Source of the DNA: an uncultured Spirochaetota bacterium
Lineage (GTDB): Bacteria; Spirochaetota; Spirochaetia; SZUA-6; Fen-1364
Direction: 5' to 3'
DNA length: 64,000 nt
Assembly (NCBI GenBank): GCA_963781885.1
Contig: CAWAHW010000006.1
Coordinates: 192,001-256,000, forward strand
Below, piece by piece: positions 3 to 18,803 of the stretch; positions within the stretch are counted from its first letter, which is position 1; every line of letters starts with the position of its first letter. Below the pieces are notes generated by a model. That model did not search any database. It saw only the letters and a list, made by a program, of their open reading frames with translations, and had not been told where the DNA came from. The translations under genes were made by a program, and so were the position numbers.

Positions 3-425
3 CCCGTCCTGACGCTCCTGCTCAGGAAGTGGCCCCTTGCCCGCACGATCTTCCTTGGCGGGCTCCTGTATGCCGTGGGTTTCGGCCTGTGCGGGCTCGC
101 CACGTCCGTGCCCCTGTTTATCCCGTTGTGCTTCGTATTCACGCTCGGCGAAATCGCAAACGCCATTGGCACGATGCCGCTCATCATGGCCAGGACACCG
201 GCCTCCCATCGGGGACGTATGAGCGGCTTCGTGCAGCTCATGCAGGGATCGGGGAGCACCATCGGTCCTCTGGCGGCCGGCAGCGCGCTCGCCGTGCTTC
301 CGATCGGGATTGCCTGGGCGGCGGTGGGCGGCATTGCCCTGGCATTCAGCCTGCTTGCTCTTGTTGCGGGGAAAGCGGAAAGAAAAGGAGCGATGAGCGA
401 CGACAGAATCCCCGCGGCGCGATAG
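3..425 (+). CDS. MFS transporter, C-terminal part (runs off left edge)
   Basis: Frame open from nt 3 (PVLTLLLRKWPLARTIFLGGLLYAVGFG...). Several hydrophobic helices and the MFS loop motif TPASHRGRMSG...GSTIGPLAAG. Confidence 0.8.
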   Translation, partial: PVLTLLLRKWPLARTIFLGGLLYAVGFGLCGLATSVPLFIPLCFVFTLGEIANAIGTMPLIMARTPASHRGRMSGFVQLMQGSGSTIGPLAAGSALAVLPIGIAWAAVGGIALAFSLLALVAGKAERKGAMSDDRIPAAR

Positions 426-436
426 ATCCGCGGCGG

Positions 437-1291
437 CTACTGGGCCGCCATTCGCCGGTAGGCAGCGGGCGTCATGCCGGTCCGGGACCGGAATGCCTCC
501 TCGAAACCGCTCAAGGAAGTGAAGCCGGCCGAAAAGCAGGTGTGGGTGACGTCCTTCCCTGACCGCAGCATGCGCATGGCGGCCTGCACGCGCAGGCGTC
601 GCAGGTGCTCGTGCGGCGTGCATCCCACCTCATTCTTAAACACCGCGATGAAACGCGACACGCTCAGGCACGCCTCCTGCGCGAGATCGCACAGGGAAAG
701 GGGGTCCTCGAGGCGCTCCTCCATCGTGGCGATGGCGCGGCGGATGCCCGCATGATGCGTGTGGTCTTCTTTCTCCTGTTGCTTCCGCGAGAGGAGGCTC
801 CTCAGGTAGTCCACGATGACCAGCGTGGACAGGCTCTCCATAATGTAGTCGGCGTCCGGGGTGCCCCGCAGTCCTTCCGCGAGCAACCGGCCGACGTCCC
901 CGTGCAACCCGCAATCGTCCGCGTACAAACGCGGTTCGGGGGGGGGCGCGCAGGGCAGGTCGAAGACCTGCTGGGCGACCTCCTGGAGCTTGCTTTCCTT
1001 CAGCGCGCACAGCATGTAGGGCTTGACGGACCCGGGAACGCCGCCGGAAACGTCCTGACCCGGCGCCAAGGGAAGCATCTTCTGCGACATGTCAGAGGAG
1101 AAATCCAGGCGCCTGCCCATGGTGACGCAGGGGGTTCTCACGAATGAAGGCGGTAACATGATGAGAAGCCAGGGCAGGCTGACGGAGTCCGCCGAACACG
1201 CGTCCGTCCATGCCACGGCCACGGAGCTCGTCTCAACAATGGGAACCTTGCCAAGAACTGACTCCAGAACGCCCCGGTCAAAACTCGACAT
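437..1291 (-). CDS. AraC family transcriptional regulator
   Basis: C-terminal AraC double HTH: LSLCDLAQEACLSVSRFIAVFKNEVGCTPHEHLRRLRVQAA...AGFTSLSGFEEAFRSRTGMTPAAYRR. Start taken at ATG 1291 after a purine-rich RBS. Confidence 0.9.
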   Translation of the reverse strand: MSSFDRGVLESVLGKVPIVETSSVAVAWTDACSADSVSLPWLLIMLPPSFVRTPCVTMGRRLDFSSDMSQKMLPLAPGQDVSGGVPGSVKPYMLCALKESKLQEVAQQVFDLPCAPPPEPRLYADDCGLHGDVGRLLAEGLRGTPDADYIMESLSTLVIVDYLRSLLSRKQQEKEDHTHHAGIRRAIATMEERLEDPLSLCDLAQEACLSVSRFIAVFKNEVGCTPHEHLRRLRVQAAMRMLRSGKDVTHTCFSAGFTSLSGFEEAFRSRTGMTPAAYRRMAAQ

Positions 1292-4550: not shown

Positions 4551-4569
4551 GGGGAGGCCGACGGGAGGC

Positions 4570-5298
4570 ATGACGCGCAGACGCAAAACCCTGCGCGTCG
4601 TCCTCCTGATCATCGGCATCGTTGTTGCGGCGCACCTGCTGTTCCTCCTGTGGTTCGGGGTGCGCCTCTTCCCCTTGCGCACGCACAACCCCGCGGTGAC
4701 GTCCATCATGCGCATCAGGGGAGACGTGACGCCGCTGGATCCGGCGGGCTTCCTGCCGCTGGCCGAAACGCCGCAGTTCGTCAAGGACCTGATCGTCCTG
4801 ACGGAAGACCCGCACTTTTACGCTCACCACGGAATCGACATCTCCTCCATCCGCCTTGCGCTGAAAGTGAATGCAGAGCAGGGCAGGATCGTGTACGGCG
4901 GATCCACCATCACCCAACAGCTTGCCCGCACGCTCTTTCTCTGGCCCGGCAAGAATCTCCTGCGCAAATACATGGAGATGTGGATTGCGCTGGAGTCCGA
5001 GGTCTTCCTGGGAAAAGGCCGGATACTGGAGCTGTACCTGAACTGCGCGGAGTGGGGTCCCGGGGTCTACGGCATGCAGCGCGCATCCCGCTTCTTCTAC
5101 CTTGAGGACGTCGCGGCGCTCACGCACGACCAGGCGATCCGCCTGGTCACGGTCCTGGCGTCTCCGCGCCGGAGCGGGCCCTGGTCCGTGGACACAGACC
5201 CGCTCCTGGACGTCCGCTACCGGTTCATCGTCAGGGCATCTCGGCGCCTGGAGGGGCGTCAGCCGCAATTCTCATCCACGCTCCAGGAGATACGATAG
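4570..5298 (+). CDS. mtgA: Monofunctional biosynthetic peptidoglycan transglycosylase (GT51)
   Basis: GT51 motifs EDPHFYAHHGID, GGSTITQQLAR, RKYME and ILELYLN. One N-terminal TM helix, no transpeptidase domain. GGAGG RBS before ATG 4570. Confidence 0.9.
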   Translation: MTRRRKTLRVVLLIIGIVVAAHLLFLLWFGVRLFPLRTHNPAVTSIMRIRGDVTPLDPAGFLPLAETPQFVKDLIVLTEDPHFYAHHGIDISSIRLALKVNAEQGRIVYGGSTITQQLARTLFLWPGKNLLRKYMEMWIALESEVFLGKGRILELYLNCAEWGPGVYGMQRASRFFYLEDVAALTHDQAIRLVTVLASPRRSGPWSVDTDPLLDVRYRFIVRASRRLEGRQPQFSSTLQEIR

Positions 5299-5395: not shown

Positions 5396-5443
5396 GGGGG
5401 TGGGTTCCAGGGAGGGGAAGCGGGTGGGGAGACGTGGTGGGGG
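5396..5443 (+). other. Cluster of seven G-tracts (potential G-quadruplex)
   Basis: GGGGG-T-GGG-TTCCA-GGG-A-GGGG-AAGC-GGG-T-GGGG-N9-GGGGG. Confidence 0.5.
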
Positions 5444-5527
5444 ACGAGCGAAGCCTAAGCCTATAGTGTCTACGCGCAACGCAAGTATGCGTACGGTATT
5501 CGGGCGCGACCTTGTTCTGACTCTCGC

Positions 5528-6694
5528 CTATTGAATTCCGTTGGGGCTTCGAAGTGCTTGCCGGTATGTCAAAGCTCTTTGGATCTCCGCCTTTGAGAAC
5601 GATCCATAACGCTGCTCAAACATCCGATTGATCTCGTCCGTCTTTCCCGCATGTTTGAAGTCGTCATATACTCCGCGAAAGTAGTAAAAGAATAGCAAAT
5701 CAAGAAAGGCCGGCGAGTAGTCCGACCGTTCAGTCGACGAATCACGAAGAACGACCAGCGTGGAAGAAGAGTTTCTGATCAGTTCGCCGAACACGCGCAT
5801 GCTTTCGTCGATTTTTCCAAGCTTCAATAGGGACGCTACGAGCATTTCGTCACGATCGTCGTACGACGGATGACGATAGGAATACCACTGCACGAACTCA
5901 TCATAGTGGCCGGAGAAATATAGTACTGGGCAAATTCGCACGCTGTCTATCGTTTGTTTCGGATCAAACAGTCTTCTGTGAGAATCAAAAACAGCATATG
6001 CTTCCGCAAAGCGTAGCTGAAATTTCAGTGTCAAGAAGAGATCTTCTACCGCATTCTTCTTGACCAAGTTTTTTTGAAATCTTCTCACGGCTTCAACTGC
6101 AGGAATCTCTCGCTTCGTCAACCCGTCGATGAAAGCGCTGAGCGTATCATACGCCTTCCAATTCGACGGGACACTCTGCTCTACATGGTTTCTCTCAAAT
6201 ACCAAGGTGTCGAACCGGGTAAGTCTTGGGTCAAACTCGGCCAATTCGTAAGGAGTGAAAGTGCTCGCTCGAGCGATCAAGTCGTCATAGTACTTCATGC
6301 CGTCCATGAATTCTGAATCCGGAGAATCCACCAAATATCCGTGACTTGCGTATAGAAAAATTCTGGTATCGTCGCCCGTAGCATCGAAATATGTCTTGAA
6401 CCCTTTGAATATTTTCAGCAAGTCGCCGTCTCTCCAGCAAAGCAGCGCCCGATCGAAGAGCGCCGACTTCGTGCCCCGTGCAACAAGAGCATCAATTTGT
6501 TTATTGAGTCCCTCTGTCTCTTCGGGAGTGTACGAACTCTTCAGAAGACCTATCCGCTTTCGCACCGCATTCTGGGCGGGGCTGAAAACCTGCGCCCTCT
6601 GTTGCTGCCCACTACTGCACTCCGTGAACAGAAGCAGTTGGCTGAGAAAGGTGAGGACCAGAATTGCTATTTTCCGAAAGTCTTTTGAATCCAT
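5528..6694 (-). CDS. Hypothetical helical lipoprotein; candidate immunity protein
   Basis: 388 aa. Basic N-terminus and hydrophobic core ending LFTE-C (lipobox-like). Start overlaps the giant gene's end by 28 nt. Visibly AT-richer than flanking genes. Confidence 0.7.
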   Translation of the reverse strand: MDSKDFRKIAILVLTFLSQLLLFTECSSGQQQRAQVFSPAQNAVRKRIGLLKSSYTPEETEGLNKQIDALVARGTKSALFDRALLCWRDGDLLKIFKGFKTYFDATGDDTRIFLYASHGYLVDSPDSEFMDGMKYYDDLIARASTFTPYELAEFDPRLTRFDTLVFERNHVEQSVPSNWKAYDTLSAFIDGLTKREIPAVEAVRRFQKNLVKKNAVEDLFLTLKFQLRFAEAYAVFDSHRRLFDPKQTIDSVRICPVLYFSGHYDEFVQWYSYRHPSYDDRDEMLVASLLKLGKIDESMRVFGELIRNSSSTLVVLRDSSTERSDYSPAFLDLLFFYYFRGVYDDFKHAGKTDEINRMFEQRYGSFSKAEIQRALTYRQALRSPNGIQ

Positions 6695-9600
6695 GCGTTG
6701 TAGCTTGCGCTTTCGTTGTTGAGGTAATTACGCCAGTATTCATACTGACCCGGTTTCCGATTCCAGTAGTCGTTGGCATTAATAACTTTCGACAAGTAGT
6801 CTGAACTATAAGACAGACTTTTCTGTGCGGATATGTCATAAGCGTTCTCAAGATTGACCTTTCTCAGCAATTCCTTGTCAAATGCATCTCCTGCAGTGAA
6901 TTCAGGTGGCAGATCCCAGAATCTCTTTCTTTGCGCATCGAACATCCCAGGGTCTTCTTGTACAAACTGCATGACCTTCGCTCCGGGAGACCCATCGATG
7001 CCCTGGCCAACGACCAATTCTTTCGACTGGATGCCACCAAAGAAGTACTGCTTTACCAAATCATCCGGGGTCCCCATCTTTATGAACTCCGCCATTACAA
7101 CGTACCGCTCCTTGGCCGCGTCTTGAATTTGTCCGATGGTCTCAGGGTCATACGCAATATTCTGGGTATTCAATGGAACTCCCAAGGCATCCGCTTTGCT
7201 GAATACTGCTTTGTCCATGTTCTCCATGCCTTTAATGCCCTTCATCATCTCGGGCAAATTCGCCTCCAAACTGTCGTACAAGTCTCTCCCACTGGCGACA
7301 AAGTCCTCCGCAGCCAATCCCGTGAGCATCGCAGCTCCGAACGAGCTCTTTTCCCACAAGTTCTCTTTCATAACCGACGCAGGGTTCACCATGTCGAGAA
7401 GGACTTCCGCCCCGCTCACGCCAGCTTTGATACCCTGAGACAGCGCACTCCCCATAAGGATCATGCTAATCAGACCTTGCGCGGGGTTGTAGTCACGCTC
7501 GTCAAAGATGTCCTTCCCCGTCCGATTAGCATACCACCATTCTGACAACTGCCCACCGCTAATAGTATCCGCAGCATCAGCAAAACCGCCAGTTGAAAGC
7601 TTCAGGGCTGGCCCTAAAAGTCCCTTCCACGCCGAGTCCCAAAGGTTATCTGGCACTATGCCAACCGGGTCGTTGCTTCCTTCATTTCCACTGAATTTAG
7701 CATGCTCTTCGCCCCCGGCACCGATCTCCCAGTTGCCAGCAACCATTGCTTGTCTGGCGATGCTATTGCTAAAAGCCGAATCACTTACACCCCATGCCTT
7801 GCTAATTGTGTACATCGCGTCCATTTGCATGATGTATGCAATGCCCTCAACACGATTGCCAGAAGCATGTGTTCCCTCATGACTAAGGACCGAAGCCATC
7901 TCGGCAGCGCCCAGTGCTCCCTTTGCGTTCAACATGTCGGCATTAAGGGTGATGGTATTCGGCGATTCGGTAGAATACGATCCCCACTCGTTCTGCGCCA
8001 TCTGACTACTGAATTGCACGGCCAGGTCCCGAGAGAATATCCTCTGGGCAACATTCCAGTTTTGCTCGCTGTCGGTGTATCCAAGCCCGTTGACGGCGTT
8101 CAGCACCGCCCTGTCATCCGAACTCCCGTATTTCCACTTCGATATCGCGGCGCTTTCAGAAACTCCTTGTATCGCGCTTGCGATGTTTCCCAAGCTGAAG
8201 TCAGCCCCGCCGGTTCCCAAATTCATGCTGAATCCATTTGAGCCTCCCAGATGCATTTCCAAAAGCCCGTTTTGCACGATCTCCCCATCAGCGCCTTTGA
8301 TCCCAAGCATGCTGAAGTTTGCGACGTTTAGAGTTGCCTCTCCTGTCATTCCGTATTGGATCCCGGCCGAGACCGCACTTCCCATTAGTCCATTGAAGCT
8401 CTGAATGCTCTGCGTATCGAATACATGTCCGTTGAGTGTGATTCCGTTGCCGTCTTTGAGGTTCCACTGCCCGAGACTACTACTTGTTGCTGTGCTAGCC
8501 ATCCCTCCCAGATATCCCGCCAGCGCTTGCTGGCCTACCACTGATTGCGCAAACGCCTGGCCGTCGAATCCAAATCCTTTATTGCTGGAGTAGGTTATGT
8601 TATTGATCAGCCCCTGGCCCATGTTTGTCGTAAAGCCTTGAGCGCCGCTCCATATGGTCTTGCCGATTATCCCGCTCAGCCCACCCACGGCGTCCAGGCC
8701 CTTCGTGACCGTGTCCCCCAATCCCCCCATGGCCATGCTGAATGCCGTGCTGAGTATGTCCTTGCCAAGGCTCACCAGACCTTCGCCCAACGACATCTGC
8801 CTGTTGGCCAGATCGGCCACGGTGAAGAGACCTTTCTCCACCAGCCCTGCGATCGCAGCTCCCGCCGGCCCGGCGATCACCGTCCCCACCACCGAGACGC
8901 CGATATCTGCCACGCTGCGCAGGGTCGGCGCCTTTACCCAGGAGTTGCGGTCATCCCAGAGCTTCTGATCGTAAGCGGGGCGGGCCGCCATCGCCCAGCC
9001 CATGCCTGCCTTCATCTGGCTCCACATGAAGGGGGTCAGCACTCTGCCGAGCTCGCCGCTGCCCGTGGCGCTCAGGTATTTGCTGTATTCAGTCTCTTCG
9101 GCAGTGGCGTCGAGGTTCTCCGATTCCATTTTGGGGGCGATCCCAACGTAGAGCCCGAACTTGCCGGCCCCAATGCTTGCGGCGGTACTTGACGCGTCGC
9201 GCCTGGTTGACTCCCTGACGGTCGTCACCTGCGACGTGTGGCGGTTTCCCTCTGAATCTACTGTCGAAACGGTGTCAGTCACCTCAGTATGAACCGTGAC
9301 ATTTTTCCAGGAGGTGATTTCCGTCGTCCCTGTGTCACCTTGTTTGCCGAAGATTCCTTCCAGCTGACCCCGCATGTCCTTGATCGCCAGCTCCACCTGC
9401 GCCTGGATTCCGGCGGCGGAGAGCTGCAACAAGGTTGCGTCACTGAGATCGACTTTCGAGGCAATTTCCGCATCAGGCACAAAAGGCCTGTATGCCGGCA
9501 CGACGTGCGTTTCCGTCAGCGGACCGTTTATCGTCGAATCAACGACGGTCTGGCGTTGGAAATCACCACCGCTCCTGACGAATCCCGCCTCAAGCAAGCT

Positions 9601-11595
9601 TCTCTCCAAACCATCGGCAACGCTCTGATTGGCGTCGTCGATTTGTCGGTTCATCTCCACCGCGGCATCGGCGACCGCCTTGCGTGCTTCGGCAGCCGTG
9701 ATCATCAGGACGTGCTTGTCGATCTCTTCCATGCTCAGGCCGTTCATTTCTCTGATGAGGCTGAGGACGTGCGAGCTGTCAAAGACGTCAGGTCCGAGCT
9801 GGGCGAAGACCACGGAGCCTGCGCTGCTGATCCCCCGGTTGAGCAGCTTCCCGCTTGCCAGCAGGCTCGCAAAATCCTTGCCCTCAAGAATTCCCGCCAC
9901 CGCCGCGCGGGCGTCCGGCGCGGAAATCCCCAGATCGCTCACCACAATGCTTCTTGCATCCCTGATCGCGCCTTCGGCACTCTGGCCGAGCTGGCCAAGA
10001 ACGGCTTCGGAGCCGATTGAAGCCGCCTTCGTTGCCGCGTCCTGAACCCACCCGGCCTTGCCGGTCTCGAGCTTGGCATACGAGGCATCCCAGGCCGCCG
10101 CGCGATCCTGATAAGCCGTGGCGAAAGCGCTCTGCCAGTTTGTATGCTGCGTCTCAAGGGCGTCAAATGCCGTCTCCCATTGGGTCTCGGCTCGTTTCAG
10201 GATGGTCTCCATTGAAGCCTGCCACTGGCTCTGTTGGGTTTGCAGGTCCTCCTGCATCAACGCCCAGCGCTGCTCCTGGACCGCCATGTAGCTTTTCATC
10301 CGGTCCTGCCATAGCGCGGCAAGCGCCTGACCTTGAGAGCTCAGAAGATCCTGCTGGGCCCGATCAAGCTCAGGGTGTTTGCGCGGGTCTACTTCAGCCT
10401 GAAGCGACTGCTCAAGACCCAAGAGTCGATTCACATGATCGGAGGTTCGATATGCGGGATTGAGGTAGGCGCGCCGTGCGGCCTCCTGGAGCGCCGTCTC
10501 TGCGGCACGATAGGCATCCGATGGATGCTCGGGATCTGCCAAAGGGACTTGGCGGAGATCGTTGAGCGCTTTCTGATACGCCTGCTCGTTCGCAAGCTGC
10601 GTTGCCGCCAAGGCGCCGGCGCCTTGTTCGAGATCGGCGCTCGCGGCTTCACGTCTGGTCTGCGCGTCATAGAGCATGTCATTGAGGGCCGTCGCGGCGT
10701 CAGTTGCCGGGTGCGCCGCACTCGTCGCGGAACCGAGGTAGCGATCGATGAGCCCGGGAAGGTCCAACCTCTGCGACGGATCGGCTATTCCGGTATTCGC
10801 AAGGGCGAGAATATCCGCCAGGTCCTGCTTGCTCACTGCCGCGAGTATCGCGCTCGTGATTGCTGTGGTCGTTACCGCCGCTCCAGAGGTGCGACCAAGC
10901 ATGGCATCAAGAGTAGCTATCTCATTGTCCAGATTCGCCCGCAATCTCGAATACCCGCCGCTTCCCACGGTTGCATCTGAAAGAGCCTGGGCAGCCGTGG
11001 TCACGAGTCCGCTGGTGCCGAATGCATTCGTAATCTGGGTATTCAGATTTGTCTGGTAGTCATTATCAACCGTGGCCATGTGTCTTTGGTTGCCCGACTC
11101 GATTCCCAAACCTATCGCCAAAGCGTCAAGCATCGCGGCCGCAGCCCAACCACCAGGAATTGCCCAGAAGAAGAGGGAAGACAAGTAATACCCTGTGGCA
11201 ACTGATGCAGCAGTTTGTGCCGCGGCCTTGTGCGTTTGCTCTTGCTTCTCAAGCAGGTCCACCAGATACTGCTTCGCGTCGGCGACGTAGCTGCTCTTGA
11301 GCATGTCGGAATTGGCGTGGGATTGGTTGCTCGTCATACCCAGGATATTCATTGCGATGAAGAACTCGTAGAGATTCTTCTGCTGCGCGTCACTCATAAT
11401 ATTGTTGTACGCGTCCAGTCCTCGGGTCCTGAACTCCTGCGTATCATAGTCGACGCCATCTGGGACGCTGTTCTGTAATGACCTGGCCCTCATTGACTTG
11501 ATATGTTGCGAACAGTTTCTTGATGTCCTTGTCTCCTGACCCGGAAGGATTGATGACCGAAATCTGGTATTGAAACGCGAGGCCCCAGTTTTCAA
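6667..11595 (-). CDS. C-terminal part of giant exported protein (candidate polymorphic toxin): Trp-ladder helix, Gly-rich hydrophobic helices, HExxH motif, variable C-terminal tip
   Basis: 1642-codon ORF overlapping the upstream ORF in the +1 frame. It has no signal peptide of its own. HEGTH at 7867-7881. Probably one gene with 11444..18487. Confidence 0.8.
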   Translation of the reverse strand: MKTGASRFNTRFRSSILPGQETRTSRNCSQHIKSMRARSLQNSVPDGVDYDTQEFRTRGLDAYNNIMSDAQQKNLYEFFIAMNILGMTSNQSHANSDMLKSSYVADAKQYLVDLLEKQEQTHKAAAQTAASVATGYYLSSLFFWAIPGGWAAAAMLDALAIGLGIESGNQRHMATVDNDYQTNLNTQITNAFGTSGLVTTAAQALSDATVGSGGYSRLRANLDNEIATLDAMLGRTSGAAVTTTAITSAILAAVSKQDLADILALANTGIADPSQRLDLPGLIDRYLGSATSAAHPATDAATALNDMLYDAQTRREAASADLEQGAGALAATQLANEQAYQKALNDLRQVPLADPEHPSDAYRAAETALQEAARRAYLNPAYRTSDHVNRLLGLEQSLQAEVDPRKHPELDRAQQDLLSSQGQALAALWQDRMKSYMAVQEQRWALMQEDLQTQQSQWQASMETILKRAETQWETAFDALETQHTNWQSAFATAYQDRAAAWDASYAKLETGKAGWVQDAATKAASIGSEAVLGQLGQSAEGAIRDARSIVVSDLGISAPDARAAVAGILEGKDFASLLASGKLLNRGISSAGSVVFAQLGPDVFDSSHVLSLIREMNGLSMEEIDKHVLMITAAEARKAVADAAVEMNRQIDDANQSVADGLERSLLEAGFVRSGGDFQRQTVVDSTINGPLTETHVVPAYRPFVPDAEIASKVDLSDATLLQLSAAGIQAQVELAIKDMRGQLEGIFGKQGDTGTTEITSWKNVTVHTEVTDTVSTVDSEGNRHTSQVTTVRESTRRDASSTAASIGAGKFGLYVGIAPKMESENLDATAEETEYSKYLSATGSGELGRVLTPFMWSQMKAGMGWAMAARPAYDQKLWDDRNSWVKAPTLRSVADIGVSVVGTVIAGPAGAAIAGLVEKGLFTVADLANRQMSLGEGLVSLGKDILSTAFSMAMGGLGDTVTKGLDAVGGLSGIIGKTIWSGAQGFTTNMGQGLINNITYSSNKGFGFDGQAFAQSVVGQQALAGYLGGMASTATSSSLGQWNLKDGNGITLNGHVFDTQSIQSFNGLMGSAVSAGIQYGMTGEATLNVANFSMLGIKGADGEIVQNGLLEMHLGGSNGFSMNLGTGGADFSLGNIASAIQGVSESAAISKWKYGSSDDRAVLNAVNGLGYTDSEQNWNVAQRIFSRDLAVQFSSQMAQNEWGSYSTESPNTITLNADMLNAKGALGAAEMASVLSHEGTHASGNRVEGIAYIMQMDAMYTISKAWGVSDSAFSNSIARQAMVAGNWEIGAGGEEHAKFSGNEGSNDPVGIVPDNLWDSAWKGLLGPALKLSTGGFADAADTISGGQLSEWWYANRTGKDIFDERDYNPAQGLISMILMGSALSQGIKAGVSGAEVLLDMVNPASVMKENLWEKSSFGAAMLTGLAAEDFVASGRDLYDSLEANLPEMMKGIKGMENMDKAVFSKADALGVPLNTQNIAYDPETIGQIQDAAKERYVVMAEFIKMGTPDDLVKQYFFGGIQSKELVVGQGIDGSPGAKVMQFVQEDPGMFDAQRKRFWDLPPEFTAGDAFDKELLRKVNLENAYDISAQKSLSYSSDYLSKVINANDYWNRKPGQYEYWRNYLNNESASYNAWIQKTFGK

Positions 11596-14500
11596 TGAAA
11601 TCGGTGTGATGGTCGGTGATATACGCTGCCATCTCTCTCAACCAGGTCTCTCGATCCGACGCATAAGTGTGGGAAGCTTTGCCGGTGAGATAGTCCTTCA
11701 ACGCGCTCTGCTGTGCAGCCGTGGAAGCGGTTCCGTAGCTGAAATCGGGCAAGCCTTCTGCATTGAACGTCACCTGCACGAATGCTTTTGTATTGGCCGC
11801 GCCGGCATCTGCAAACGTCACATCCCCTGGTGCGTCAACGAATAGCTCGCTAATCTTGGAGTCCAGCGCGTCTTGCGCGTCGGCGACTTTCTGTTGCTGT
11901 TTCGCCGTGGCAGAGCCCAGGAGCGACGACAACCTCTCGAAAGCAAGATATGCGCCGTACTGTTCTTGGTACTGCTCGAAGGCGTTGCGATATGCGACTT
12001 GTTCCGGACCATTGCCCTGCGCAAAGTCGGCCGGTTGATCGGTGCCGCCGTACAGGCTGCGCAAAGCATCGAGGGCGGCCTGCGCCCGCAGAAGCCCGGC
12101 CTTGGCTGCGGTGACACGTTGGTCGGGATCCACGGCGAGACTCGCGGAATCCTGTCCATCGGATCCTTCGGGCGCGCTCGTCACCTGACCGGTACTTGTA
12201 TCGAGATAGCCGGTTGATGCAAAGGTTGTAATGGCCTCGGCTTTCTGCAGCTCGAAACGCGCCGTCTCCAGACCCGCGGCGGCGTCCCGCGCCTGACTGT
12301 AAAGCCCATCATAGGTGCCGCTTGTTGCGGAGAAAGCCGCCACGGCGGCAGTGTAAGCTGTGTTCAAGGAATCCCGTGCAGCAACCAATTGGTCCAACTT
12401 GTCTTTGAGCGGCGCGGCCGCTGCCGCCGAGCTTTTCTGGCCATCTATCAAGCGCTGCGAGAGGGCCGAGCCAAGGAGGGATATCTGTCGTTTCAGCGAT
12501 GCAATCGACGCCTGGAGGCCATTCAAGACACGGGTCGAAGAGTCTACCGCGGCCTTTGCTGCTCCGGTTGCATCGAAGCTGTTGAGCTGAATCCCTTCCC
12601 AATCGGCAAGAAGTGCGGAGGAACGTCCGCTGCTTGCGTCGGCGAAAACTGGAGACAGAGTGGTTGAAAAAGCATTCAGCCGGGATCGATCCATGCTCCG
12701 GTCCGCGGCCACCGTCGTATTGAATCGCTCTGCCTGCCCTCGAAACTGATTTGTCGCTTCCAGGACTGCATTCTCATAAAGCGGTCCTGGGGTGCCCGAT
12801 CCAGCGCCGACCCCCGGTGCAACCTCATAAATCCCCGCGGCATCGTCGACCTGCGTCGTCACCTGACCGGCCGACGTTGCGGGAGCAAGATGCTGTTCTG
12901 TATTATCCTTATCCGTCGCATCATCGCTTTTGACTTGCATGAGAAGGTCGCTGAGGTAGGCACGGTATGCGAGGGGTGAGCCCGCCATCCCGCCAGCGAG
13001 GTCTTCCGCCTGCTTCTCAAAGCTCAGGCGCGCTGCCAGACCCGGCTGCGCGTGCGTCATGGCGGTGAGATCCTTGACGAGGATGTTTGAGATGTAGTCC
13101 AGGGCAGTCTTTGTCTGAGCGGATTGATTTTCGGCCGTCTTGTCGATGATGTCATTCGCGGAAGCGCTCAACGGGGAGGCGAAAACAGGGTCCTGCCACG
13201 CCTTCATTGAGGCAAGGGCTCCGTCCCTTACCGCGATTGTGAATGAATCCGTTCCCGCGCGCTCGGCGCCGTATGGAACGGGACCTGATTCCGCCGCGGC
13301 CACATAGCCGTTCTCAAGCGAATAGTCCGTTTGAAACGCCTGGGTCTGCTCCCGGACTGAAGGCGACACGCTGCCTGCGTCGGCATCCGTCTTTTTGCCC
13401 GCAAGTATCTTTCGCTTTAGGATCCACAAGGCAGCCTCGGGTGAGCCGAGGAGCAGGAGGAGAGCGTCTGTCGAAGGCGGCGGCGTATCATTCGAGCCAT
13501 CGGCAGACTTGATGAGGGAGTCGATTGCCGAAGGGCAGCCGACGCCAGAGATGGACAGCATCCATCCGGCGAGATCGACCCGCTCCGCCTCGTCGATTGA
13601 CAATTGCGCCAGATCGTAGTTGAGACCAAGCGCAAGCGCTTTTTCGTTGGCATCGATCCCCACCCTTCCCGAGAGATTGGTCGAGACGATGGCCGAGGCC
13701 CGGTCACGGCCGGCGTCCGAAAGTGCCTGCTGAGCGAACCACGCTTCCCGAGCAGCAGAGCCGAGCGTGCGAAGGCTGTCCTCATATCCTCGCGCGACGT
13801 CGAGTCCCTTCAGGCTGCCCGAGAGATAGCGCCCACGGAAGAGCTCGCGCCAATTGCCCTGCGCGTCCGCGTTGCCGTTGCACGCAAGGTAGCCCTGGGT
13901 GTAGAGACGCGCCAGCTCGAAGCTCCTGTCGGTCGAATCGCCATTCAGAGCGATGCCGTTCTCCGTCATGGTCGCCAGGTAATCGTTCAAAGAGGCATTC
14001 ACGCCGGCGGATGTTCCCGCGCTCAACACGGCCTGTTCGGCCGCCGTCATCGACTGGTCAATGAGCACCTCTTTCAGGAGCCCGAAGTCGCAGCCTGTCA
14101 GGCCATCGTCGGCAAGACCGCCGCAGACCGCGGCCAGAAGATCTGCCGCTGCGACGACCTTGAAGCTCGTCGTGGTTGAAAGAGCGGACAGGGTGCTCCC
14201 GTCCAGTTCGCCGCGAAGGAGCTGAAGCCAGGAATCCCTTCGGGAGTTCACGTCGACGGTCCCCGTCGCTCCGCGGAAAAGATCGAGATAAGCTCCCATG
14301 AATGAAGACAGCACGGACGAGTCGGCATCCGGATGCGAGGCGATGTAGGCGCGCGCGGCGCCTTGCGCCTTTTGCTCGTCATAGCTTTGACCGTCGATGG
14401 CAGCGTCTATGGCCGCCTTCATTCCCGCCGCATTGAAGTACCGTGACAGAAGCGAATGTTCCGTCGGCGTCGATGAAAGGAAGGATCGATTGATTCCCGT

Positions 14501-17500
14501 ATATGCCGTTGCCATCGCGGCATTCGATTCGATGGAGGCTTCGAGCAACGGAATCTCCTGATCGAATGCGAGCGAGGTCTTTTTCCCGCCGTAGTAGGTG
14601 CTCAGCAGGTACTCATTCCACGACGCGGCGTCAATGCCCTGCGCGCCCCATCGAGCGGAAAGGGAAGAATCAATCGAATGAAGCACGGAAAGTTGCGTGG
14701 CTCCTGTCGCGACGAGGACATCGCGGCTGCCGTCATCTTTCGCTCCGGCAAACCAGGCGGGGCTGTACGTGTTCCACACGGCGTTCGCATACTCCGTGCA
14801 TACATCCTCTCCCAGTGCATTCCAGTCAGCGTGCGACGGGTCGGTGAGCGCCGCGACCCGAAGAAGGAGAGAGGCCGTTTCTGTTTCCAGAGAGCTCCTG
14901 ATCCCCGCCACAAGAGGCGCGATCCAAGGGTCTCCCACGAGCTCGCGCAGCCCATCTGAGGACAGGAAGGCGCTCACGGCGCTATGGATGGCGGTGGAAT
15001 CGGGGGCAACGCTGCCGCATTCCCCGATCAGGGATCGGGCGATGCCGACCGCGGACTGGGCGACGAAACGCGCGCTCACGTCGCCGGCGGAAAGGGAAAC
15101 AGCGAGCCCGACGGAAGAATCGAATCCGCCTGTGCCTTGAATCGTTTGGACGTCGCGAAGAACCAGTAGCAGTGACACGGGGTCATTGGCGGTGCTCTCC
15201 GCATTGCCTTGCAGCTTTGCGAGGTCCTCCTGGAGGCTCTCCATGCGGTCGGAAAGACGGCCCAGCGCGCCTTGCGTCTCTTGCGATGCCCCGACGGCGC
15301 CGCCGAGATTCACCACGTGCAGCGCGAACAGATCACTCAGGGATTGGAGCAGGGATTGGAGCTGGGCGGCAACCGGCTGGGGAAGATTCAACGACACGGA
15401 TGCAATGCCATCCTCCACCTGCTGCAGCCACGTCTCCACGAACGCCGCGTTCGGGTGCGCGCTCCAGATGTCGCGCCACACATCCTCGGGGTTGCGGAAG
15501 ACAACCGTGTCCGCCGATGCGGCAGTGGCAATTCCGCGCTCAACGAGGAGAACCTGTGCCTGGGAGATCGCTTGGCGCGCGAGCCCTTCCCGCACCGCGG
15601 GGGCGACAGCCGCGTCCTTTGTCATGAGAGAGGCGATGGAGCCTCGCGGCGCGTCCGAAGGGGATGCCCCCCCAAGCACCAGAGAACCGTAGTCTGCTCC
15701 TGCAAAAGCGAACATGCTCGATCCTGAGAGGAATTGGCGCGCGAGCTCGTCACTTTCCGCCAGGTTCCTGATCTCAGCTCCATGGGCCGTCAGGTCCGGG
15801 TTTGACGAATGCAGGACTGCTTCCATCACATCGATGATTTTCTGGAGAGCGGCCGACCTGCGCGAAGCTTCTGTTCCGAGATCTCCTGCCGAAAGGCCGG
15901 TTTCCGTCTTGAATATCGCCGAGAGGATCTGTGTCCGTGAATCAACAATATCCTTTGGCTGCGTCACCGCGGCGATCGTCTGGAAGCCGCCAACATTTAA
16001 CGGATCGGCGGCGAGAGAGTCGAGGATCTGTTTTTGCGCCGTTGCGTCGTCCAGGAACGCCTGCGCGACGGACCCCTTCGCGCACTCAATCACTTTGCCT
16101 TCCGTATCTTCAAAATCTGCGCCGACGGTGATTCCTTCGGCTGCCGCCCATGTCTGAAGGTCAGGGCTTGTCAGGAGCGCGATTTCGGCAAGGCGACATT
16201 GCAGGTCGTCCTCTCTTTGCGCGGAAAGCTGCCGAACGAATCCGACGATGCTCAGTCGCGCGAGTGCCTGCTGCTCCGGCGTCTTGTCAGAGTCTGCGTC
16301 GGAATCGTGGAACTCGAGCGTCAACTGGTTGATGACCTCAGGTGCGAGTGCCAGCGTCTCCAGCGAAGCCGTGAAAGACGCCGAATCCGTGCTGAATTTC
16401 CACTGGCTCGCTTTTCGCGCAGAGTCGGAAAGATCCTGCAGTGAGCTCTGTCCTGAGTCCGTGTCACCGAGCACGAGCTGTGACACCGTTTGCGCGGCCC
16501 CATTCACTTCTTGTTCCAGTCCCATTTCATTGACTGCAGCGAGATATTCTCCGTAGGCGACCGCTTCATTTTTCTGCATATCGTCGGCTGCAGGGCCGAG
16601 TCCGGTGTCCTTCAGCAGCTCCTGGTAGTAGCCTTGCAGCTGTTGCCGGAACGGCGTGGAATCCTTTGTGCTCCAGATGTCCAGGGTGTCCTGGTAGCTC
16701 TCCCTCGCTTCCTTGAGCTTGCCGTCGAGCTCTTGGAGTTGATCGTTGAGGTCGGCGACCTTCTGCCTGTTCGTCGGCAGGTCATTCCCGCACGCCGTGA
16801 GCGCGGCCAGCGCCTGTTGATAGGCGGTCTGCCGCGTCTGGAAAACGCGCAGCGCCTCTTCATAGCCCTGCTCCGTCTGCGCTTCGGTTGGCCGGAGGGA
16901 ACTGTTTTCATGCGCATATGCGGCGACGGCCGCCGCAATGGTGACTTGCTTTTGCCAGTAGCCTTGCGTGGCCTGGGCCGCCAGCAGTGCCACCTGGTAG
17001 TCGTCGAGATAGTGAGTATCCACCGCGTCGGTGCCAAAGATGTCCGTGTAGGAGGTGCTGCCGGGCTCGCCACCGTTGATTTCGGTCGCCGTGTCCGCGA
17101 GGAATGTCAGCGCGCTGGCATAGTACGCTTGATACGTGTCCCGAGTGCTGGTCCAGAATGCGATCTCTCCGTTCACGTCGTCGTTGGCGGTTTGCTCTTT
17201 CCAATAGGCGAGCGACGAGTCCGCCGTGCGCAAGATGTTCGCCGCTTGGCTGTATACCTGGGTGACGTTTGCAATTTGCGTGTCGAGCGATGTCGAGCGC
17301 TCATCCACGGCATGATTCAAGTCCAGCCGCGCCTGGTCTATGGCTGCCGAAAGGTCGCTCTGCTTGACTTGCCAACTCGCCTTTCCGGTGTCCAGGATGT
17401 TTCGCAGCTCGCTTTCCCACGCCACGCGCGCGGCCTGGAGCTGCTGGTACGCGTCCGCCCACTCGCGTTCCCCGGCCTGGAATTGATCGGTTACACTCTT

Positions 17501-18487
17501 TTCCCACTGCGCCCGCTCAATGAGCAGATCCTGCTCCGCCTTTGTCCAGCGCGCCATGCCTTTGTCGAACTCGCGGCGGAAGCTTTCCTGCCATGCCGCC
17601 GGGTCGATCGCGACCTCACCTTCCGGGGTGGCAGCATGCGACGTCGAAAGAGAATCGCGCAACGAGACCAGACCGGCGGCCATGTCCGCATTCGCTCCCG
17701 CAATGATCTGGGAAACGACGGACGTGGCGGTCTCATCTTCACTCTTTTTGCGCAGGCTCAACTGGTCGCGCGTGCGGGCGTTCAGGAAGCGCGCCTCGTC
17801 ACGCTGGAAAGCAGTGTTCAGCTCGCGCGCGTAGGCTGCCCGATATTGCGCCTCGGTCGCGGTGAACTGGCCGTCAAACGCCGTCCCTTCCGGCAAAGAC
17901 CCGAGCAGATCGGTTCGGATTGCAGCGGCATGATCGTCCCATGCGGACAGCTCGGTTTGCAGCGTTTCGGAGACCGTGGCCTCCCAATCGGCCGTGTCGG
18001 TTTCCAGGTTGGCAGTCTGGTACATCTCCGGGTCGCCTGCGGTATCGTAGATGATCCCGTTCTCATCCGTCCGGTAAAGCTTCGACAAGTCGGCCTGGAG
18101 CACCGACCGTGCGAGCGCGGCGCTCTCTGCGGGCGCTTGAGCCGAGAACGCATCCTGGATAAGCCATTGGGCGTACCGCTGTTGCAGGAGGGCGTCAAAG
18201 TCGTCCTGCACGCGATCCCGCTCGGCGCGGAGGTCGATGCCCTGATCGACAAGGGCTGCTGCGCTTGACTCCCACCTGGCGACCACGGTCTGGACGCCGA
18301 ACTGGGCGATACGCAGCCAGTCTTGCTGGGACTGCGCCCTATCCGCATAGTCGAAGTAGATCTCAAGCTGGCTGCGCTGCTGGTCTTCGAGCTTGTCGAG
18401 GCCGAGGTTTTGCGCAATTGCCGTGCCAGTGGCCCAAAGCATCGCCACAGCGGCAATGCCGGCGACGAGAATCTTGTGCCCACGCAT
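11444..18487 (-). CDS. N-terminal part of giant exported alpha-helical protein (reminiscent of Leptospira TIGR04388-type giant proteins; unverified)
   Basis: AGAGGA RBS and ATG 18487. Signal peptide MRGHKILVAGIAAVAMLWATGTAIA-Q. Ala/Gln/Asp-rich helical sequence. The frame ends in junk (QRPRWRRL) where the +1 frame takes over. Span 18487-6667 is 3n+1 nt. Confidence 0.8.
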   Translation of the reverse strand: MRGHKILVAGIAAVAMLWATGTAIAQNLGLDKLEDQQRSQLEIYFDYADRAQSQQDWLRIAQFGVQTVVARWESSAAALVDQGIDLRAERDRVQDDFDALLQQRYAQWLIQDAFSAQAPAESAALARSVLQADLSKLYRTDENGIIYDTAGDPEMYQTANLETDTADWEATVSETLQTELSAWDDHAAAIRTDLLGSLPEGTAFDGQFTATEAQYRAAYARELNTAFQRDEARFLNARTRDQLSLRKKSEDETATSVVSQIIAGANADMAAGLVSLRDSLSTSHAATPEGEVAIDPAAWQESFRREFDKGMARWTKAEQDLLIERAQWEKSVTDQFQAGEREWADAYQQLQAARVAWESELRNILDTGKASWQVKQSDLSAAIDQARLDLNHAVDERSTSLDTQIANVTQVYSQAANILRTADSSLAYWKEQTANDDVNGEIAFWTSTRDTYQAYYASALTFLADTATEINGGEPGSTSYTDIFGTDAVDTHYLDDYQVALLAAQATQGYWQKQVTIAAAVAAYAHENSSLRPTEAQTEQGYEEALRVFQTRQTAYQQALAALTACGNDLPTNRQKVADLNDQLQELDGKLKEARESYQDTLDIWSTKDSTPFRQQLQGYYQELLKDTGLGPAADDMQKNEAVAYGEYLAAVNEMGLEQEVNGAAQTVSQLVLGDTDSGQSSLQDLSDSARKASQWKFSTDSASFTASLETLALAPEVINQLTLEFHDSDADSDKTPEQQALARLSIVGFVRQLSAQREDDLQCRLAEIALLTSPDLQTWAAAEGITVGADFEDTEGKVIECAKGSVAQAFLDDATAQKQILDSLAADPLNVGGFQTIAAVTQPKDIVDSRTQILSAIFKTETGLSAGDLGTEASRRSAALQKIIDVMEAVLHSSNPDLTAHGAEIRNLAESDELARQFLSGSSMFAFAGADYGSLVLGGASPSDAPRGSIASLMTKDAAVAPAVREGLARQAISQAQVLLVERGIATAASADTVVFRNPEDVWRDIWSAHPNAAFVETWLQQVEDGIASVSLNLPQPVAAQLQSLLQSLSDLFALHVVNLGGAVGASQETQGALGRLSDRMESLQEDLAKLQGNAESTANDPVSLLLVLRDVQTIQGTGGFDSSVGLAVSLSAGDVSARFVAQSAVGIARSLIGECGSVAPDSTAIHSAVSAFLSSDGLRELVGDPWIAPLVAGIRSSLETETASLLLRVAALTDPSHADWNALGEDVCTEYANAVWNTYSPAWFAGAKDDGSRDVLVATGATQLSVLHSIDSSLSARWGAQGIDAASWNEYLLSTYYGGKKTSLAFDQEIPLLEASIESNAAMATAYTGINRSFLSSTPTEHSLLSRYFNAAGMKAAIDAAIDGQSYDEQKAQGAARAYIASHPDADSSVLSSFMGAYLDLFRGATGTVDVNSRRDSWLQLLRGELDGSTLSALSTTTSFKVVAAADLLAAVCGGLADDGLTGCDFGLLKEVLIDQSMTAAEQAVLSAGTSAGVNASLNDYLATMTENGIALNGDSTDRSFELARLYTQGYLACNGNADAQGNWRELFRGRYLSGSLKGLDVARGYEDSLRTLGSAAREAWFAQQALSDAGRDRASAIVSTNLSGRVGIDANEKALALGLNYDLAQLSIDEAERVDLAGWMLSISGVGCPSAIDSLIKSADGSNDTPPPSTDALLLLLGSPEAALWILKRKILAGKKTDADAGSVSPSVREQTQAFQTDYSLENGYVAAAESGPVPYGAERAGTDSFTIAVRDGALASMKAWQDPVFASPLSASANDIIDKTAENQSAQTKTALDYISNILVKDLTAMTHAQPGLAARLSFEKQAEDLAGGMAGSPLAYRAYLSDLLMQVKSDDATDKDNTEQHLAPATSAGQVTTQVDDAAGIYEVAPGVGAGSGTPGPLYENAVLEATNQFRGQAERFNTTVAADRSMDRSRLNAFSTTLSPVFADASSGRSSALLADWEGIQLNSFDATGAAKAAVDSSTRVLNGLQASIASLKRQISLLGSALSQRLIDGQKSSAAAAAPLKDKLDQLVAARDSLNTAYTAAVAAFSATSGTYDGLYSQARDAAAGLETARFELQKAEAITTFASTGYLDTSTGQVTSAPEGSDGQDSASLAVDPDQRVTAAKAGLLRAQAALDALRSLYGGTDQPADFAQGNGPEQVAYRNAFEQYQEQYGAYLAFERLSSLLGSATAKQQQKVADAQDALDSKISELFVDAPGDVTFADAGAANTKAFVQVTFNAEGLPDFSYGTASTAAQQSALKDYLTGKASHTYASDRETWLREMAAYITDHHTDFIENWGLAFQYQISVINPSGSGDKDIKKLFATYQVNEGQVITEQRPRWRRL

Positions 18488-18803
18488 TTTCAATCCTCTG
18501 AACGTTTTCATTTGCTCTTTCGCCAAAGCACAAACGAAGGAGCTTGTAGAAATTCGTATCACAGGTATCTGCAACCGTCAAGGATTCCAACGGGCTATCC
18601 TTGAAGAAGGAGGATTGAATATCAGCAGTTCGACTCGCAGGGGAGGAATAGATATGGAATCACCTTCGGTTCACATTTCCTCTGCGACCATGGCGTATTG
18701 GATTACGGGTGGCGTAAGAAGGGTTTGGTCCGAAGATTGTGGAAAAGACCACCAAGAATCCGGCCTTGAGCTTCTGCTGGTCTTCTTTCATTTCGCTTCT
18801 AGC

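Follow-up and report, generated by a model that had tools for sequence, protein, structure and literature searches.

Two tryptophan ladders conserved in a family of giant proteins from Spirochaetota are predicted to pair as an antiparallel helical stalk

In the arms of SMC, Rad50 and RecN proteins and in the hairpin of the chemoreceptors (methyl-accepting chemotaxis proteins, MCP), long helices from distant parts of the chain pack together after a reversal of direction, which joins the N- and C-terminal parts at one end and leaves an intervening module at the other. In chemoreceptors, insertions and deletions (indels) must be matched in both arms. Colicin Ia contains a very long antiparallel helical hairpin, with a tip domain at one end and the N- and C-terminal functional domains at the base; its C-terminal domain is the killing module and a gene coding for a protective protein is also present. 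In the D0/D1 domains of the flagellin and hook proteins, conserved N- and C-terminal helices pair in antiparallel orientation and the hypervariable middle is looped out. The long helices of tape measure proteins carry tryptophan (Trp) or phenylalanine (Phe) at a fixed spacing of 11 or 18 residues, which is non-heptad and near the natural period of the helix (PMC5099701). The present analysis deals with a stretch of 64,000 nucleotides from an uncultured Spirochaetota bacterium (contig CAWAHW010000006.1, positions 192,001 to 256,000), hereafter the window, and with a giant gene on its minus strand that encodes two ladders of regularly spaced Trp residues. These ladders are probably the two strands of an antiparallel stalk, made of two helices with practically no supercoiling, within one chain of a single exported protein of about 3,950 amino acids.

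The ladders are encoded by two open reading frames (ORFs) of the minus strand that overlap and differ in frame, listed as ORF1 (11444-18574, 2376 amino acids) and ORF2 (6667-11595, 1642 amino acids). Ladder 1 (17372..17593, minus strand, ORF1 residues 328-401) is formed by six Trp at residues 328, 343, 357, 372, 386 and 401, with gaps of 15, 14, 15, 14 and 15, and ladder 2 (10048..10311, minus strand, ORF2 residues 429-516) by seven Trp at residues 429, 444, 458, 473, 487, 502 and 516, with gaps of 15, 14, 15, 14, 15 and 14. The original prediction, made from the letters of the window, had described both alternating 15/14 ladders, and the translations of window:17372-17593(-), WQESFRREFDKGMARW...DTGKASW, and window:10048-10311(-), WQDRMKSYMAVQEQRW...ETGKAGW, together with the Trp positions, reproduce its peptides and spacing exactly. 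The distance of about 2,400 residues that it gave between the ladders also agrees with the approximately 2,354 codons that lie between the two ladders, the first and the last ladder Trp being separated by about 2,515 codons. The TGKAxW ending ascribed to both ladders holds for the window protein and its close relatives and does not extend to the family as a whole, where the only residues conserved near the last Trp are a glycine (Gly) at -4 in ladder 1 and a lysine (Lys) at -3 in ladder 2.

Trp accounts for 1.6-1.8% of the residues of ORF1 and ORF2. When each ORF was shuffled 20,000 times, no run of 14/15 gaps was longer than 3, compared to the observed runs of 5 (ladder 1) and 6 (ladder 2), and the analytic chance expectations of these runs are 3.8e-7 and 1.6e-8, respectively. 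With none of the 20,000 shuffles reaching a run of 4, chance or a compositional artefact was ruled out as the origin of the ladders, and both strictly spaced ladders are confirmed as real.

A homologue search of the protein database with ORF1 residues 60-660 as query retrieved, beyond the window's own protein, 12 relatives, each of them a single protein of 2,282-4,086 amino acids. The closest relative, P0006, was obtained from a Spirochaetia metagenome bin and has 3,940 amino acids and 65% identity. When P0006 was compared to the window by tblastn, the similarity followed frame -1 down to 11480 and frame -2 from 11412 on. This switch and the single-protein relatives show that ORF1 and ORF2 form one gene, which comprises about 3,950 codons and changes frame within 11413..11479 (minus strand). 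The ORF1 frame (11444..18487, minus strand), delimited from the ORF list and the translation, constitutes its upstream part, and the ORF2 frame (6667..11412, minus strand), delimited in addition by tblastn and the single-protein relatives, its downstream part. The frame change may be either a true frameshift or an assembly error; the public contigs of two runs overlap the stretch only at 11552-11800, outside the frame-change zone. The ladders had been proposed to link the two ORFs as one unit, a linkage that the single-protein relatives demonstrate more directly than the ladders themselves. The likely start of the gene is Met30 of the listed ORF1, at 18487, since the database copy of the window protein has 2347 amino acids and lacks 29 residues of that frame. 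From Met30 on, the N-terminus resembles a Sec signal peptide, and the probable signal peptide MRGHKILVAGIAAVAMLWATGTAIAQ (18410..18487, minus strand) was read directly from the sequence. A hydrophobic segment is present inside the first 40 residues in 55 of the 88 full-length relatives.

Both ladders, in the same 14/15 phase, were found in all 12 first homologues, ten of which contain the full six-Trp ladder 1. Among 29 homologue loci, the six-position ladder 1 is exact in 27 (24 with the six Trp and three with five of them), L025 and L030 being the two that do not match it. Of 401 genomes of the class that were searched, 93 (from 50 of 155 genera) contain the ladder-1 region and 78 (from 45 of 155 genera) that of ladder 2, with matches to both regions sharing contigs and giant frames. 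Forty whole stretches spanning both ladder sites were fetched and their ladders were called by a rule based on Trp only; 37 of these genes have both ladders, two (L066 and L100) have one and L098 has none. In the 37 genes with both ladders, between 816 and 2,749 amino acids separate the first Trp of ladder 1 and the last Trp of ladder 2. In a phylum-wide sample, which includes other classes, the ladder-1 profile was matched in 87 of 401 genomes, belonging to 46 of 153 genera, and the frames concerned reach 4,582 amino acids. An exhaustive search carried out with the profile of the ladder-1 helix among 1.84 billion representatives yielded 363 clusters (50% identity) at E<=0.001, with 317 clusters at E<=1e-10.

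Among the 96 listed representatives of at least 2,000 amino acids, two ladders were found in 88, one in seven and none in one, and more than two were found in none of them. The histogram of Trp-Trp gaps has its peaks at 14 (455 gaps) and 15 (542 gaps), against a background of about 20-90 per gap length; no gaps of 12, 13, 16 or 17 bordered by ladder gaps occur in the set, and a single pair of neighbouring gaps does not alternate. In 128 ladder pairs, the Trp occupancy of positions 1-6 of ladder 1 is 0.96, 1.0, 0.99, 0.98, 0.99 and 0.64, the sixth position being mostly Phe when it is not Trp, and that of the last five positions of ladder 2 is 0.93, 0.98, 0.98, 0.98 and 1.0. Ladder 1 always starts near residue 300 (median 299). 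Both ladders are therefore conserved without indels across the family, in one gene, while the middle is of very variable length. Searches of Pfam, NCBIfam and PHROGs with the window ORFs gave nothing meaningful, NCBIfam returned no family for 12 large representatives, a PDB profile search with the N-terminal alignment A1 gave no match and a protein atlas search gave no usable match. No description of the family or of a 15/14 Trp ladder was found in the openly readable literature, subscription journals being outside the scope of that search.

The hydrophobic period measured across homologues is 3.62 residues in ladder 1 and 3.65 residues in ladder 2. The spectral power at 3.5 is 0.24 compared to 1.76 at the peak (ladder 1) and 0.09 compared to about 1.0-1.1 (ladder 2), and neither ladder shows the 3.5-residue period of the canonical heptad coiled coil. 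In the homologue alignments the hydrophobic positions of both ladders constitute a stripe of one residue per turn, and the periodic stripe of ladder 1 continues for 70 residues past the ladder. The AlphaFold2 model of the N-terminal part (543 residues, alignment A1 with 28 sequences) has a mean pLDDT of 76.9 and includes a compact helical domain at pLDDT of about 90. It also predicts a single long helix with ladder 1 at its start (17195..17602, minus strand, ORF1 residues 325-460), which is continuous over model residues 268-403 at pLDDT 72-87. A Foldseek search of this model against the PDB gave nothing at E<=0.001. The long helix with ladder 2 (9979..10365, minus strand, ORF2 residues 411-539) was transferred from the model of another family member, G286, described below, its limits being taken as the last Trp -105 and the last Trp +23. 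A nearly unsupercoiled helix with 29/8 = 3.625 residues per turn, as the original prediction proposed, is supported by the measured periods and by the unbroken helices of 129-143 residues drawn by AlphaFold2. Gly recurs four residues ahead of every second ladder Trp; helix-turn-helix repeats broken at this periodic Gly were considered and ruled out, because AlphaFold2 draws continuous helices.

Trp residues at a distance of 15 are not restricted to the ladders. The pairs 86/101 and 197/212 of ORF1 (window 18271-18318 and 17938-17985), each exactly 15 residues apart, are located in helices of the confidently modelled N-terminal domain, and a Trp triplet with 15,15 spacing is present at the region of this domain in the relatives P0012, P0015 and P0017. 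The 15-residue spacing rule seems to be used beyond the two main ladders too.

The ladders of the window are too far apart to be folded together, and for this reason the shortest natural gene of the family (G286, locus L063) was modelled. The fragment used has 917 amino acids, from 40 residues before ladder 1 to 60 residues after ladder 2, and its alignment contained 15 sequences (G286 and 14 other natural fragments) from the 37 available. The AlphaFold2 model has a mean pLDDT of 82.8 and a pTM of 0.57, with helices at residues 38-180 (ladder 1) and 752-880 (ladder 2), mostly at pLDDT 87-95, and both ladder helices are predicted to lie side by side in opposite directions. Every solved chain whose superposition extends over both helices is an antiparallel hairpin: the chemoreceptor cytoplasmic domain 2ch7_A (Z 9.5, 303 of 309 residues aligned, model residues 30..883), the Smc coiled coil 5xg2_A (Z 9.4, 235 aligned, 57..849), the Tsr fusion 3zx6_B (Z 8.8, 273 aligned, 35..856) and the RecN coiled coil 4abx_A (Z 8.9, 153 aligned, 109..804).

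The two ladder helices of the window itself were co-folded (ORF1 residues 320-470 with ORF2 residues 405-545), with alignments of 38 rows each in matching genome order. The ipSAE values were 0.56, 0.57 and 0.57, compared to 0.00 for the best of three controls; the runs agree in at least 81% of the contacts and the partner pLDDT is at least 81. In the calibration of the co-fold mark, this was reached by 116 of 157 solved complexes and by two of 215 mismatched pairs, but values of 0.60 or lower were obtained for no more than 18 of the 157 solved complexes. The pairing of the window helices is graded as weakly supported by the co-fold. A hairpin stalk that loops out the middle of the protein, which the original prediction had put forward, gains support from the co-occurring ladders, the variable distance between them and the antiparallel model, to which the co-fold adds this weak support.

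Covariation between the ladder helices was analyzed by mutual information on 38 pairs, which was too noisy to show contact either way, and by mean-field direct-coupling analysis (DCA) on 113 non-redundant pairs (effective number, Meff, 90), carried out without a permutation null. In the DCA, which is noisy at this depth, the strongest inter-helix coupling links column 89 of ladder 1 to column 43 of ladder 2 (i+j = 132). These columns hold glutamate (Glu) and arginine (Arg) in 31 of the 113 pairs and aspartate (Asp)-Lys, Asp-Arg and Glu-Lys in three pairs each, about 40 acid-base pairs in all, hydrophobic pairs being otherwise frequent, and such a swap between acid-base and hydrophobic pairs is the pattern that a direct contact would produce. 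The pair 78/54 is also at i+j = 132, and the mean coupling per antidiagonal peaks at 133-135. The antidiagonal i+j = 134 brings each of the five conserved Trp of ladder 2 exactly opposite one of Trp 2-6 of ladder 1, because the 14,15,14,15 series of one helix is the reversed series of the other.

In the arrangement that we regard as probable, a helix that extends over about 140 residues, or about 21 nm, away from the compact N-terminal helical domain would begin with ladder 1. A mostly helical distal module of very variable length would come after this helix and be looped out, and the chain would return through a helix of about 130 residues that contains ladder 2 and is packed on the first helix. 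This pairing would bring a C-terminal module, composed of a Gly-rich hydrophobic region and a swappable enzyme-like domain, beside the N-terminal domain. The hydrophobic stripe would be straight along each helix because the 29-residue period (15+14) equals eight helical turns, which places a Trp at every fourth turn. Read in antiparallel orientation, the 14/15 alternation of Trp 2-6 of ladder 1 equals that of the five conserved Trp of ladder 2, and since the alternations match in opposite directions the Trp of the two helices could meet face to face or be staggered by no more than one turn, forming regular rungs at a spacing of about 2.2 nm. The lack of indels in the ladders would be explained because an indel in either helix would shift every rung out of register. 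The continuous helices and their antiparallel pairing are model predictions; the register of the rungs, the export and the role of the whole protein are inferred.

Several points weigh against this arrangement. The antiparallel packing was deduced from which solved hairpins superpose on the G286 model, and not from coordinates or contacts, and superpositions with Z of 9-10 are common for helical models and carry no sign of homology. The co-fold controls were unrelated proteins instead of long amphipathic helices, so that a generic stickiness of helices may account for the scores too, and the higher pLDDT that ladder 1 reaches in the model with ladder 2 was obtained with another protein and another alignment than the lower one. 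Pairing within one chain and pairing between chains, by domain swapping or oligomerization, look alike in these data and cannot be told apart. In the noisy DCA (Meff 90) the top couplings within ladder 1 are not concentrated at i+3/i+4, and any antidiagonal band 7 columns wide holds at most five of the top 40 inter-helix pairs, the band at about 131 being tied with that at 119. In addition, two helices with periodic Trp could have come to resemble each other in profile by convergence, under a shared packing rule, and a real frameshift in the window would leave the ORF2 product without a signal peptide.

The two ladders are also alike in sequence. When their alignments were compared by hhalign, a probability of 95.5% and an E value of 1.5e-8 were obtained over 64 columns; in this alignment Trp 1-5 of ladder 1 match the last five of ladder 2, and the 15/14 phase is the same in both. 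Gly at -4 of Trp, leucine at +7, Arg at +11 and the next Trp at +14 are common to both. Pairwise BLASTP between the ladders gave an E value of 3e-6, a ladder-2 query cross-matches ladder-1 sites in about ten genomes, and ladder 2 of the window matches ladder 1 of P0006 and P0007. Given the profile match, the BLASTP result and the cross-matches, the ladders likely arose by an old internal duplication, the other possibility that the original prediction had considered. Duplication and zipping are not alternatives and both may hold. With the spacing conserved, the ladders paired in the models and their profiles similar, the results differ from the outcome set out beforehand as contrary to the prediction, in which the spacing would not be conserved and the segments would show neither predicted or covarying contact nor homology.

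A duplication could also have produced two helical modules that work independently, either as homo-oligomeric straight coiled coils or by binding the same outside partner. The cell-wall glycan strand is a candidate for such a partner, its sugars being read by the Trp stripe at a pitch of 2.2 nm; Trp stacks on sugars. The ladders resemble each other in the same, parallel phase, the N-terminal part modelled alone still shows the unbroken ladder-1 helix at pLDDT 72-87, and cell-wall peptidase domains are found at the C-terminus of some relatives (M23 in three of 13 scanned, and NlpC/P60 in one of 13, the latter below threshold), all of which is compatible with independent modules. However, the presence of exactly two ladders in 88 of 96 representatives, and never of three or more, fits a pair better, the model of the natural G286 fragment puts both helices side by side, and the co-fold of the window helices scored 0.57 against 0.00 for the controls, so that we consider independent modules rather unlikely. 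A different possibility would be that the ladders are amphipathic helices lying flat on a membrane surface, with the Trp stripe as interfacial anchors, since Trp prefers membrane interfaces and there are hydrophobic segments elsewhere in the protein. The stripe has, however, the width of a single residue, charged residues abound on its flanks, with conserved Glu, Arg and Lys beside the Trp, and the models pack the two helices on each other instead, which makes this arrangement very improbable.

Just as improbable is a relationship to phage tape measure proteins or to another tail-like ruler, in which the Trp would be length-marking repeats. Tape measure proteins contain hydrophobic segments and, in many cases, peptidase domains at the C-terminus, besides Trp/Phe repeats with spacings of 11 or 18 residues, which add up to 29 (PMC5099701). 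The C-terminal M23 domain of the relative P0007 matches tape-measure PHROGs, and the N-terminus of the same protein (residues 40-573) matches phrog_22272 (E 1.5e-11), a viral family of 4080 positions and unknown function that the window ORFs do not reach at E 0.01. This match implies that a giant relative has been binned as viral or prophage somewhere. Against such a relationship, neither window ORF has a PHROG match or a match to a Pfam tape-measure model, the tape-measure PHROG matches stem from the M23 domain alone, the neighbouring genes are chromosomal and do not code for tail, head or chaperone proteins, the N-terminus resembles a signal peptide, and the Trp periodicity is limited to two stretches of 60-90 residues and does not run along the whole protein.

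Outside the putative stalk, a 44-residue hydrophobic stretch that has a Pro/Gly/Trp turn at its centre was read from the sequence at 11092..11223 (minus strand, ORF2 residues 125-168). This stretch, which may be a membrane hairpin, is located about 260 residues ahead of ladder 2 and is below the threshold of Kyte-Doolittle hydropathy (KD) >=1.6; a segment above that threshold is found 247-342 amino acids before ladder 2 in 21 of 88 relatives. Ladder 2 is followed by a conserved Gly-rich and partly hydrophobic region (8164..8916, minus strand, ORF2 residues 894-1144, with a KD segment at 898-916). The similarity to P0006 covers ORF2 residues 62-1145, with 52% identity, and none was found beyond residue 1145 of 1642. 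The rest of the protein is a variable C-terminal domain of 497 residues and lower G+C (6670..8160, minus strand, ORF2 residues 1146-1642), with a HEGTH motif at 7867-7881 and a weak SprT-like Pfam match (E 0.041). A PDB sequence search with the C-terminal 540 amino acids gave no match. The G+C content is 0.44-0.55 over 5400-8700, a block that comprises ORF2 residues from about 965 to 1642 and the gene at 5528-6694, against 0.60-0.65 in the flanks.

The first 160 residues, approximately, of the variable C-terminal domain recur patchily, in 12 of 401 genomes, some at the ends of giant frames and some in short frames, and the domain of the window type is not in G329, a genome of the same genus that has the giant gene. 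Peptidase M23 matches at the C-terminus were obtained in three of the 13 relatives scanned: with the PF01551 cut-off at 28.7 bits, P0007 (59.3 bits) and P0015 (35 bits) pass and P0066 (20.2 bits) does not, and the Pfam scan gave no PF01551 match in the window protein. Close homologues thus share a long N-terminal part and have unrelated C-terminal domains, which is a trait of polymorphic toxins, and this mosaic C-terminus suggests a resemblance to polymorphic effector systems.

The gene downstream (5528..6694, minus strand) codes for 388 amino acids, with a leader at the N-terminus that is hydrophobic or lipoprotein-like. The stop codon of the giant gene lies within this downstream gene, which belongs to the same block of low G+C. 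The layout of this gene and the variable C-terminal domain looks like a swapped effector cassette. The downstream gene has no Pfam match, and among the loci with a similar C-terminal domain no conserved partner gene for the cassette was found, the 388-amino-acid gene giving a single weak tblastn match (L105, E 0.002). A partner or immunity role of this gene was consequently not supported by conservation. Two to four paralogous giant genes of the family occur in some genomes (G326, G160, G523, G586, G609 and G667). In G326 they are located on contig C1 at about 1.34 Mb, 4.16 Mb and 4.32 Mb, and a possible orphan cassette, a short frame of 550 amino acids with a C-terminal domain like that of the window, is found at a distance of about 11 kb from one of these genes.

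The neighbouring genes in the window are chromosomal and include those of an AraC-type regulator, NHL-repeat, ankyrin and TPR proteins, a TolC/HlyD/AcrB-type efflux system and a monofunctional peptidoglycan transglycosylase, with no tail, head, chaperone or other phage-like genes among them. The transglycosylase gene (window 4498-5298, plus strand, PF00912, E 8e-41) lies on the opposite strand about 230 bases beyond the end of the 388-amino-acid gene; this proximity could be fortuitous or could be connected with the cell-wall peptidase domains of some relatives. An antisense open frame of 592 amino acids (window 16490-18268, plus strand) lies opposite ORF1, including ladder 1, and is most likely a by-product of the high G+C and of the codon bias of the giant gene.

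The family extends widely across the phylum, and its members, of 2,000-4,600 amino acids, are among the largest proteins of their genomes and have no Pfam, NCBIfam or PDB relative. The double ladder provides the first structural handle on these giant proteins, because it defines which parts meet, and the two indel-free 15/14 Trp ladders are a simple signature to find and orient members of the family. The predicted stalk could be visible by electron microscopy and, if correct, would be a natural example of a coiled coil with 29/8 periodicity and Trp in the stripe. The whole protein could tentatively be considered a polymorphic cell-wall-active effector or scaffold, and spirochaetes would have in this family a new scaffold for delivery, provided that its variable C-terminal domains act as effectors. 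A more speculative and rather doubtful extension is that the stalk represents a novel kind of coiled coil, a straight antiparallel zipper with a 29-residue period and Trp-Trp rungs every 2.2 nm that lock the register, which would serve as a rigid spacer of a fixed length of about 20 nm in giant exported proteins with a variable tip and a swappable cell-wall-active or toxic C-terminal domain, for a delivery like that of colicin Ia.

Among the systems compared, the arms of SMC, Rad50 and RecN and the chemoreceptor hairpin are those that resemble the predicted ladder hairpin in bringing the terminal parts together and leaving a module at the far end, and SMC, RecN and chemoreceptor chains are the ones that superpose across both ladder helices of the G286 model. 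Unlike them, the ladder protein has, according to Pfam and NCBIfam, no ABC ATPase head, hinge, zinc hook or MCP signalling domain. The only SMC-type NCBIfam match was to an archaeal SMC-related (ASRP) model, with 12 bits against a cut-off of 300, and the Pfam scan of the window ORFs gave neither SMC_N or AAA matches nor an MCP signalling domain, the likeness to 2ch7_A being geometric only. The 29-residue period (3.62-3.65 residues per turn), the Trp at every fourth turn and the apparent export also set the ladders apart from SMC-type arms. The layout of colicin Ia resembles the one predicted for the ladder protein, with no sequence or fold match obtained, although the ladder protein is about six times larger and its C-terminal domains are peptidase-like and not pore-forming. 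The predicted layout is also similar to that of the flagellin and hook family, from which the protein differs in the lack of homology, in the internal instead of terminal location of the ladders and in showing no sign of filament assembly.

The likeness to tape measure proteins lies in the long helices with aromatic residues at a fixed, non-heptad spacing and, for some family members, in hydrophobic segments and C-terminal M23 domains, and contrasts with the strict 15/14 alternation in two short paired stretches and with the window having neither phage context nor family match. A regular stripe of stacked Trp that staples two segments is also known from the Trp-Arg ladders of thrombospondin repeats and of the WSXWS cytokine receptors and from synthetic tryptophan zippers, and Arg at -3 of several ladder Trp is conserved here. 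Those structures are made of beta-strands and have Trp every 2-3 residues, whereas the ladders studied here would be in alpha-helices, with Trp 14-15 residues apart. The paired ladders would thus work like the antiparallel arms of SMC proteins and chemoreceptors, yet the protein appears to belong to none of the SMC, chemoreceptor, colicin Ia and flagellin families, because their defining domains are absent. The predicted stalk itself would be of a known kind, the long antiparallel coiled-coil stalk, here in an uncharacterised phylum-wide family.

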